From Escherichia coli (GTDB lineage: Bacteria; Pseudomonadota; Gammaproteobacteria; Enterobacterales; Enterobacteriaceae), in NCBI RefSeq assembly GCF_050920415.1, contig NZ_CP169309.1: DNA of 64,000 nucleotides, one strand, 5' to 3'. The translations under genes were made by a program, and so were the position numbers. The first letter of the stretch is position 1. The number at the start of each line of letters is the position of its first letter. A model generated the notes under the pieces. The model saw only the letters and a list, made by a program, of their open reading frames with translations. It did not search any database and was not told the DNA's origin. This document shows, in pieces, positions 23,926-24,179 of the stretch.

Positions 23926-24078
23926 GTTCGTGTCTCCTGAAAAAAAATCGTTCTGAATAAGTGTAAACGCGCGATTGTACCATTACCAATAGCGCTTTTA
24001 CTATGTTGTGACCTCGGTTCAGGGAAACAAACCTGGCCAGACATTGTTACACAACACTCCGGGTAATGCATTCCAATA

Positions 24079-24094
24079 CTGTATATTCATTCAG
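24079..24094. promoter_or_regulatory. LexA box shared by divergent uvrA and ssb promoters
   Basis: CTGTATATTCATTCAG, near match to CTGT-N8-ACAG, about 85 bp upstream of uvrA start. Confidence 0.85.
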
Positions 24095-24179
24095 GTCAAT
24101 TTGTGTCATAATTAACCGTTTGTGATCGCCGGTAGCACCATGCCACCGGGCAAAAAAGCGTTTAATCCGGGAAAGGTGA

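Follow-up and report, generated by a model that had tools for sequence, protein, structure and literature searches.

The divergent uvrA and ssb genes of Escherichia coli are separated by a spacer in which a single LexA (SOS) box is located, and the question raised by this locus is whether that box serves both genes alike, as was implied by a first-pass annotation of the same DNA, or whether it belongs principally to one of them. The window considered here, meaning the whole 64-kb stretch of DNA that was analyzed, is identical to positions 4773286 to 4837285 of NZ_CP169399.1 (strain MFDS1022581), with the exception of one base. A 1.4-kb probe spanning the uvrA-ssb box matched this strain with 100% identity and found matches in 5425 of 5426 complete E. 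coli genomes. The single differing base, at position 21362 inside pdeC, is a T in the window and a C in NZ_CP169399.1, and it results in an alanine-to-threonine substitution at codon 406 (GCA to ACA). Gene placement was taken from the RefSeq annotation together with an open reading frame (ORF) listing. The ssb coding sequence (178 amino acids; NCBIfam NF006533, 360.1 bits against a cutoff of 260) occupies positions 23389 to 23925 on the minus strand, while that of uvrA (940 amino acids; NCBIfam equivalog NF001503, 1628.6 bits against a cutoff of 1147) occupies positions 24180 to 27002 on the plus strand. The spacer between the ssb start codon (ATG at 23925) and that of uvrA (ATG at 24180) therefore measures exactly 254 bp, the length that had been assigned to it previously.

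The box itself extends from position 24077 to 24096 as the 20-mer TACTGTATATTCATTCAGGT, to which no strand is assigned. Within it, the invariant CTG-N10-CAG core of the gammaproteobacterial LexA box (consensus TACTG(TA)5CAGTA, as defined in PMC11228462) spans the 16-mer CTGTATATTCATTCAG at 24079 to 24094, with the CTG at 24079 to 24081 and the CAG at 24092 to 24094; this 16-mer falls inside the interval of 24061 to 24100 which the first-pass annotation had given. The same core is present in two boxes directly upstream of lexA, namely, the distal box TGCTGTATATACTCACAGCA at 40210 to 40229 and the proximal box AACTGTATATACACCCAGGG at 40189 to 40208, both on the minus strand. Their 16-mers, at 40212 to 40227 and 40191 to 40206, respectively, are spaced 21 bp from center to center and correspond to the two tandem boxes which had been noted ahead of lexA-dinF at 40191 to 40227.

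Because the simple pattern CTGT-N8-ACAG, with at most one mismatch, gave 18 matches over the window against 18.6 expected from shuffled sequences, and thus occurred at chance level, the presence of a LexA operator could not be supported by such a pattern alone, and a symmetric position weight matrix was used instead. The training set of this matrix comprised 17 E. coli LexA sites that have been published and are located outside the window (PMC3009722 Table 4), the lexA site being excluded in order to avoid circularity. A scan of the 64 kb returned the distal lexA box (19.2), the proximal lexA box (18.15), and the uvrA/ssb box (17.4) as its three highest-scoring sites, all of which fall within the range of the training sites (13.0 to 28.6), followed by a fourth match at 11.5. 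The boxes proposed previously therefore represent the top of the window's distribution rather than scoring below its background: approximately 0.037 sites with a score of at least 17.4 are expected per 64 kb under the background model, and 13 of 500 dinucleotide-preserving shuffles contained any such site. Each of the three 20-mers agrees in every letter with a published E. coli site (PMC3009722), the uvrA/ssb 20-mer with the uvrA box in Table 7, the distal lexA 20-mer with a site in Table 4, and the proximal lexA 20-mer with a sequence in Table 7 of that study. A heterology index (HI) of 6.98 is quoted for the uvrA/ssb box in PMC9505508, which cites Fernandez de Henestrosa et al. (2000).

The fourth-best match, GGCTGTTTTTTTATCCATTC at positions 1283 to 1302 in the fdhF-yjcO gap, was rejected as a LexA site, as it is without the CAG half and approximately one match of this score (11.5) is expected per 64 kb. 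It resembles the uvrB site of the training set. A weak LexA-like 20-mer, AACTGCACAATAAACCAGAG, was also observed at 40251 to 40270, 41 bp upstream of the distal lexA box; its score of 6.9 has an expectation of 0.014 in its own 109-nt spacer but of approximately 8 in a 64-kb window.

The comparative set of 120 loci was assembled from species-representative genomes, in which the N-terminal coding sequence of ssb was searched for by means of a degenerate pattern; with the anchor placed in the ssb coding sequence, loci were selected independently of the box. A divergent uvrA was present at most 1.5 kb upstream of ssb in 54 of these loci (Enterobacterales, with two Photobacterium and two metagenome bins), and the spacer of 52 of the 54 contained a site scoring at least 12.9. 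The 53 distinct spacers (one per species) were aligned with MAFFT, and information content was calculated in sliding windows of 20 nt. The most conserved window of the alignment was found to be exactly 24077 to 24096, at 1.62 bits per column compared to 0.69 elsewhere (rank 1 of 235). Further conserved islands comprised both ribosome-binding sites, TTTGTGTCATAAT at 24100 to 24112, GTTT at 24118 to 24121, and, on the ssb strand, TGGTACAAT (23982 to 23974) followed by GTTTACACT.

Within the box, the right half-site TCAG (24092), which is off consensus relative to ACAG, is retained in approximately 80% of Enterobacterales; Enterobacter and Lelliottia harbor a consensus-like AACAG right half and score 21.9, and the left half-site varies freely between CTGT and CTGG. 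At the level of the species, a 60-mer centered on the box is identical in 4361 of 5425 E. coli records, and the 20-mer was intact in all three of the E. coli variant genomes that were sampled. Position 24021, located in an unconserved part of the spacer, carries a rare A in this strain and a C in most E. coli; a control 60-mer covering this position (23997 to 24056) is identical in just 7 of 5410 records.

The geometry of the spacer is most regular on its uvrA side, where the box lies a median of 84 nt from the uvrA start codon (interquartile range, 80 to 89 nt; 53 species). As a sigma-70 consensus scan of the uvrA-ssb and lexA regulatory spacers returned no passing promoter, the promoter hexamers given here are based on conservation and on published descriptions, and the promoters concerned are probably of a nonconsensus, extended -10 type; the exact hexamers and transcription start positions of both uvrA and ssb should be taken as predicted. 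For uvrA, the sequence, geometry, and conservation of the region point to an extended -10 element, TGTGTCATAAT, at 24103 to 24112 on the plus strand (TG at 24104 to 24105 and CATAAT at 24107 to 24112), the columns of which show a conservation of 0.8 to 0.99 across the 53 species. The corresponding motif, TGnnAnAAT, was found in 48 of the 53, at an offset from the box of 7 nt in 39 species and of 9 nt in 6. The putative -35 element is TATTCA at 24084 to 24089, such that the box covers the -35/spacer region, and an overlap between the box and the uvrA -35 is likewise described in PMC9505508. A uvrA promoter fragment of K-12 origin (bioRxiv 10.1101/620195) agrees with the window across the box and as far as the -10 element.

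It is envisaged that a LexA dimer bound at 24077 to 24096 would cover the -35/spacer region of this extended -10-dependent promoter and thereby exclude RNA polymerase, and that, following DNA damage, RecA-stimulated self-cleavage of LexA would free the uvrA promoter and produce a rise of approximately 4-fold. Published RNA sequencing (RNA-seq) data obtained after AZT treatment report a 3.9-fold induction of uvrA with a lexA (lexA3) dependence of 4.4-fold (PMC11228462), a UV-induced uvrA transcript has been associated with the box motif, which was found de novo (PMC3009722 Table 7), and physical binding of LexA at the uvrA/ssb box is reported in literature cited by PMC9505508. We propose, with a probability of approximately 0.9, that positions 24077 to 24096 represent the classical operator for LexA at the uvrA promoter of E. 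coli, that LexA bound there additionally blocks a weak ssb promoter located distally, and that the two boxes upstream of lexA are autoregulatory, with dinF expressed by read-through. The identity, significance, and conservation of the site, as well as its geometry with respect to uvrA, derive from the present analysis, while the LexA dependence of expression is drawn from the literature.

The ssb gene begins 151 nt from the box, on the side opposite uvrA, and it is on this side that alternative readings of the box differ. According to the first of these, the box is a symmetric bidirectional operator, of equal importance to uvrA and ssb as two coregulated SOS genes. The site is indeed tabulated as common to both genes (PMC9505508 and PMC8072944), and in Salmonella treated with nalidixic acid, where the box is listed as shared, the fold changes of the two genes are alike (11.2-fold for uvrA and 9.6-fold for ssb; PMC8072944 Table 1). 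Reverse transcription-quantitative PCR (RT-qPCR) has furthermore shown that ssb is induced after UV or gamma irradiation and that this induction is abolished in a lexA3 background (PMC9505508), which indicates that the effect of LexA on ssb is not nil. The E. coli sequence is also compatible with such a reading, as a -35-like TTGACC (24099 to 24094) and a -10-like TGGAAT (24075 to 24070), separated by an 18-nt spacer, bracket the box on the ssb strand and together form a candidate distal, LexA-sensitive ssb promoter at 24070 to 24099 (minus strand). These hexamers may correspond to the ssb promoter "P1," and their position around the box fits the statement, attributed to Brandsma (1985) in PMC9505508, that only one of three ssb promoters, the most distal, is open to repression by LexA.

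The conservation of this distal promoter argues against such symmetry. A -35 element matching TTGACA at four or more of six positions was identified in just 15 of the 53 species, and the element is unrecognizable in most Enterobacterales other than E. coli. Even within E. coli it is polymorphic: a recurrent C-to-T change at 24097 converts TTGACC to TTAACC while leaving the adjoining LexA 20-mer unchanged, and the 60-mer carrying the TTAACC allele is found as an exact match in 705 of 5401 E. coli records (approximately 13% of complete genomes). Both this strain and the promoter fragment of K-12 origin (bioRxiv 10.1101/620195) have the TTGACC form. The distance between the box and the ssb start codon is similarly unconstrained, with a median of 146 nt and a range of 114 to 362 nt across the 53 species, in contrast to the fixed spacing between the box and the uvrA -10 element. 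Downstream of the box, the conserved ssb-strand island TGGTACAAT (23974 to 23982, minus strand) is predicted, from the conservation of TGnTAnAAT across the 53 species, to be the extended -10 element of a proximal, LexA-independent ssb promoter.

Expression data for ssb are themselves divided. While the RT-qPCR results described above imply a role for LexA, RNA-seq after AZT treatment yielded a 1.5-fold induction of ssb with a lexA dependence of 1.0-fold, compared to the 4.4-fold dependence of uvrA (PMC11228462). Under normal growth conditions, ssb expression is equal in the wild type and in lexA3 (PMC9505508), and several earlier studies observed no ssb induction; the literature reviewed in PMC9505508 comprises decades of conflicting data. 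When these observations are considered together with the retention of the box by uvrA in Vibrio, which is described below, an operator of equal importance to both genes appears unlikely. The earlier suggestion of one box serving uvrA and ssb consequently holds insofar as a genuine operator is present in the spacer, but it overstated the symmetry of the arrangement in view of the uvrA-locked geometry, the weak ssb -35 element, the organization of the Vibrio loci, and the RNA-seq data.

Twelve Vibrio and two Photobacterium loci retain a uvrA that is divergent from ssb but located 1.7 to 2.2 kb away, with other genes in between. Each of these loci possesses a near-consensus LexA site (score, 20 to 26) positioned 63 to 78 nt upstream of uvrA, and none near ssb. 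They thus resemble E. coli both in the presence of a LexA site upstream of uvrA and in the divergent orientation of uvrA and ssb, although the Vibrio box is closer to the consensus (e.g., TACTGTTTTTTTATCCAGTA, which scores 25.7) than is that of E. coli (17.4). In Vibrio sinaloensis (L080), whose locus was examined in detail, the interval between uvrA and ssb is occupied by galU and a gene for a LuxR-type regulator, both on the strand of uvrA; owing to these intervening genes, the box stands approximately 2 kb away from ssb, and sharing of it between the two genes is precluded. In 16 Vibrio species, no conserved CTG-N10-CAG core was found at a distance of up to 300 nt from ssb, though a TGnTATnCT element is conserved upstream of ssb in these species, in line with the proximal ssb promoter predicted for E. 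coli.

The association between LexA and uvrA may not extend to all of the sampled lineages. Most of the Shewanella, Alteromonas, Idiomarina, and Cycloclasticus loci, in which uvrA is divergent from ssb at a distance of 1.5 to 1.9 kb, yielded no LexA-matrix site upstream of either gene (e.g., L004, L034, L048, L051, L059, and L090), and, judging from these upstream regions, uvrA may lie outside the LexA regulon in most loci of these four genera.

The Vibrio loci also bear on a second alternative, according to which the box is exclusively a uvrA operator and the induction of ssb by DNA damage is indirect, arising, for example, from gene dosage, replication arrest, or another regulator. In V. cholerae treated with mitomycin C, uvrA, an SOS gene, is induced 9.9-fold and ssb 3.8-fold (PMC5963079), and no LexA core is present within 300 to 400 nt of ssb in the sampled Vibrio, a sample which did not include V. 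cholerae itself; this combination suggests that part of the damage induction of ssb may need no local box. The lexA dependence of 1.0-fold reported for E. coli ssb (PMC11228462) and the poor conservation of the distal ssb -35 element point in the same direction. An exclusively uvrA-directed box is nevertheless difficult to reconcile with the loss of ssb induction in lexA3 and the overexpression of ssb in a strain in which the SOS response is constitutively induced (PMC9505508), with the repression by LexA of one of three ssb promoters (Brandsma 1985, as cited in PMC9505508), and with the plausible promoter that brackets the box in the E. coli sequence, and we consider it improbable. The remaining alternative, that 24077 to 24096 is a chance LexA-box lookalike without a regulatory role, is in keeping with the chance frequency of the one-mismatch 16-mer pattern (18 against 18.6) and has a negligible probability, being refuted by a matrix score far above background, by the coincidence of the box with the conservation maximum of the spacer and its retention in 52 of 54 species, and by its identity to an experimentally studied operator whose gene, uvrA, is expressed in a LexA-dependent manner.

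The reading preferred here, in which the box is the LexA operator of the uvrA promoter and additionally blocks a weak ssb promoter, accommodates both sets of observations. As the weak distal ssb promoter of E. coli is predicted to bracket the box, the same LexA dimer would block that promoter too, while most ssb transcription would arise constitutively from the conserved proximal promoter or promoters downstream of the box, beyond the reach of LexA. Such an arrangement would render ssb just marginally or conditionally SOS inducible. The comparative data tie the operator to uvrA and leave it with a weak, evolutionarily labile hold on ssb, which fits the decades of conflicting reports on ssb inducibility. 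As to how this asymmetry came about, we tentatively suggest that the box is ancestrally and primarily a uvrA operator and that ssb is under LexA control as a by-product, restricted to those lineages in which the box happens to be bracketed by a distal ssb promoter; this evolutionary scenario is possible, although we would rate its likelihood at somewhat less than even.

The two boxes at 40189 to 40229 constitute the autoregulatory double operator of lexA (202 amino acids; positions 39574 to 40182, minus strand; RefSeq, TIGR00498 equivalog, 289.5 bits against a cutoff of 110.95). After AZT treatment, lexA was induced 1.8-fold with a lexA dependence of 3.1-fold (PMC11228462). Downstream of lexA, dinF (441 amino acids; positions 38176 to 39501, minus strand; RefSeq) encodes a MATE efflux transporter, which matched the NF007690 equivalog with 900.9 bits over profile positions 1 to 440 of 441. 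The 64-kb scan returned no matrix site between lexA and dinF, and dinF is presumed to be expressed by read-through from the lexA promoter; cotranscription of lexA and dinF has been described (PMC6590174), as has a UV-induced transcript touching both genes (PMC3009722).

The 72-nt gap between the lexA stop codon and the RefSeq start of dinF contains a strong terminator-like hairpin followed by a T-run (39534 to 39563, minus strand), which was detected by a terminator scan; the hairpin has a 13-bp stem, and RNA folding gave a free energy of -24.1 kcal/mol and a z score of -4.09. As transcription initiated at the lexA promoter has to pass this hairpin in order to reach dinF, read-through can only be partial or else subject to regulation. 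An alternative dinF ORF of 459 amino acids (ATG at 39555) would start inside the hairpin, and the NCBIfam DinF model fits the start of the 441-amino-acid version. A literature search for the lexA-dinF terminator found no relevant description.

The window had additionally been described as dense in SOS and replication genes, with five DNA metabolism genes occurring within 64 kb. All five genes are present, and the protein products of uvrA, ssb, dnaB (471 amino acids; positions 31552 to 32967, minus strand; RefSeq, NF005945 equivalog, 1072.4 bits), dinF, and lexA all score above the cutoffs of curated NCBIfam equivalog or subfamily models, although dinF, as a transporter gene, does not belong in the DNA metabolism category. 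The proposed density did not withstand a Poisson estimate based on either approximately 26 classical operator regions or 49 ChIP-chip sites (Wade 2005, as quoted in PMC3542263) in 4.64 Mb, which gave a probability of approximately 0.05 to 0.15 for the presence of two or more LexA regions in 64 kb, equivalent to an expected 4 to 11 windows of 64 kb with at least two LexA-controlled regions per genome. The 64-kb scan moreover returned no matrix site near dnaB. Clustering of SOS and replication genes beyond chance was therefore rejected, and the grouping, while correct as a description, is evidence of nothing.

A search with Rfam detected no RNA family in either the uvrA-ssb or the lexA-dgkA spacer. 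Elsewhere in the window, matches above the gathering score were obtained on the plus strand for the small RNA sraL (19982 to 20122), which overlaps the 3' end of soxR, for STnc430 (59812 to 59961), located between yjbE and pgi, and for a lysine riboswitch (61856 to 62052) upstream of lysC. The naRNA4 (CssrE) family is represented by three intergenic copies, all on the minus strand, after yjcO (2041 to 2111), after acs (12657 to 12728), and between lamB and malM (47903 to 47973); these copies are repeated extragenic elements. Two coding sequences on the minus strand, one for a 334-amino-acid DUF2713 protein (35973 to 36977) and the other for a 526-amino-acid SopA-family protein (45014 to 46594), are annotated as intact in RefSeq. 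In K-12, these positions probably carry split or pseudogene versions (yjbL/yjbM and yjbI).

Both the uvrA/ssb SOS box and the double operator of lexA have belonged to textbook knowledge since the early 1980s. The arrangement had been recognized as a known one in the first-pass annotation, and it is described in PMC9505508, PMC8072944, and PMC3009722. With respect to the K-12 uvrA/ssb box (Brandsma et al. 1983, 1985; Fernandez de Henestrosa et al. 2000, via PMC9505508), the 20-mer is letter-identical and is situated between the same divergent pair of genes, the rare A at 24021 being the only particularity of this strain and no functional difference being apparent. The lexA double operator likewise showed no difference from that published for E. 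coli, both 20-mers being identical, 21 bp apart, and located upstream of the lexA ATG with dinF downstream. A comparable organization, i.e., a single palindromic operator within a divergent intergenic region, has been reported for the Salmonella nlhH/higB-2 locus (PMC8072944), which involves a different gene pair. The operators of this window are thus already known, and biologically they offer nothing new; they serve instead as an internal positive control, as the first-pass annotation had intended, and indicate that regulatory elements of this window were called from the raw sequence with single-base accuracy. The useful refinement lies in the comparative data, which make the asymmetry in favor of uvrA over ssb explicit. 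If control of ssb by LexA is indeed a by-product confined to lineages in which a distal ssb promoter brackets the box, the SOS inducibility of ssb should differ between strains and between genera.
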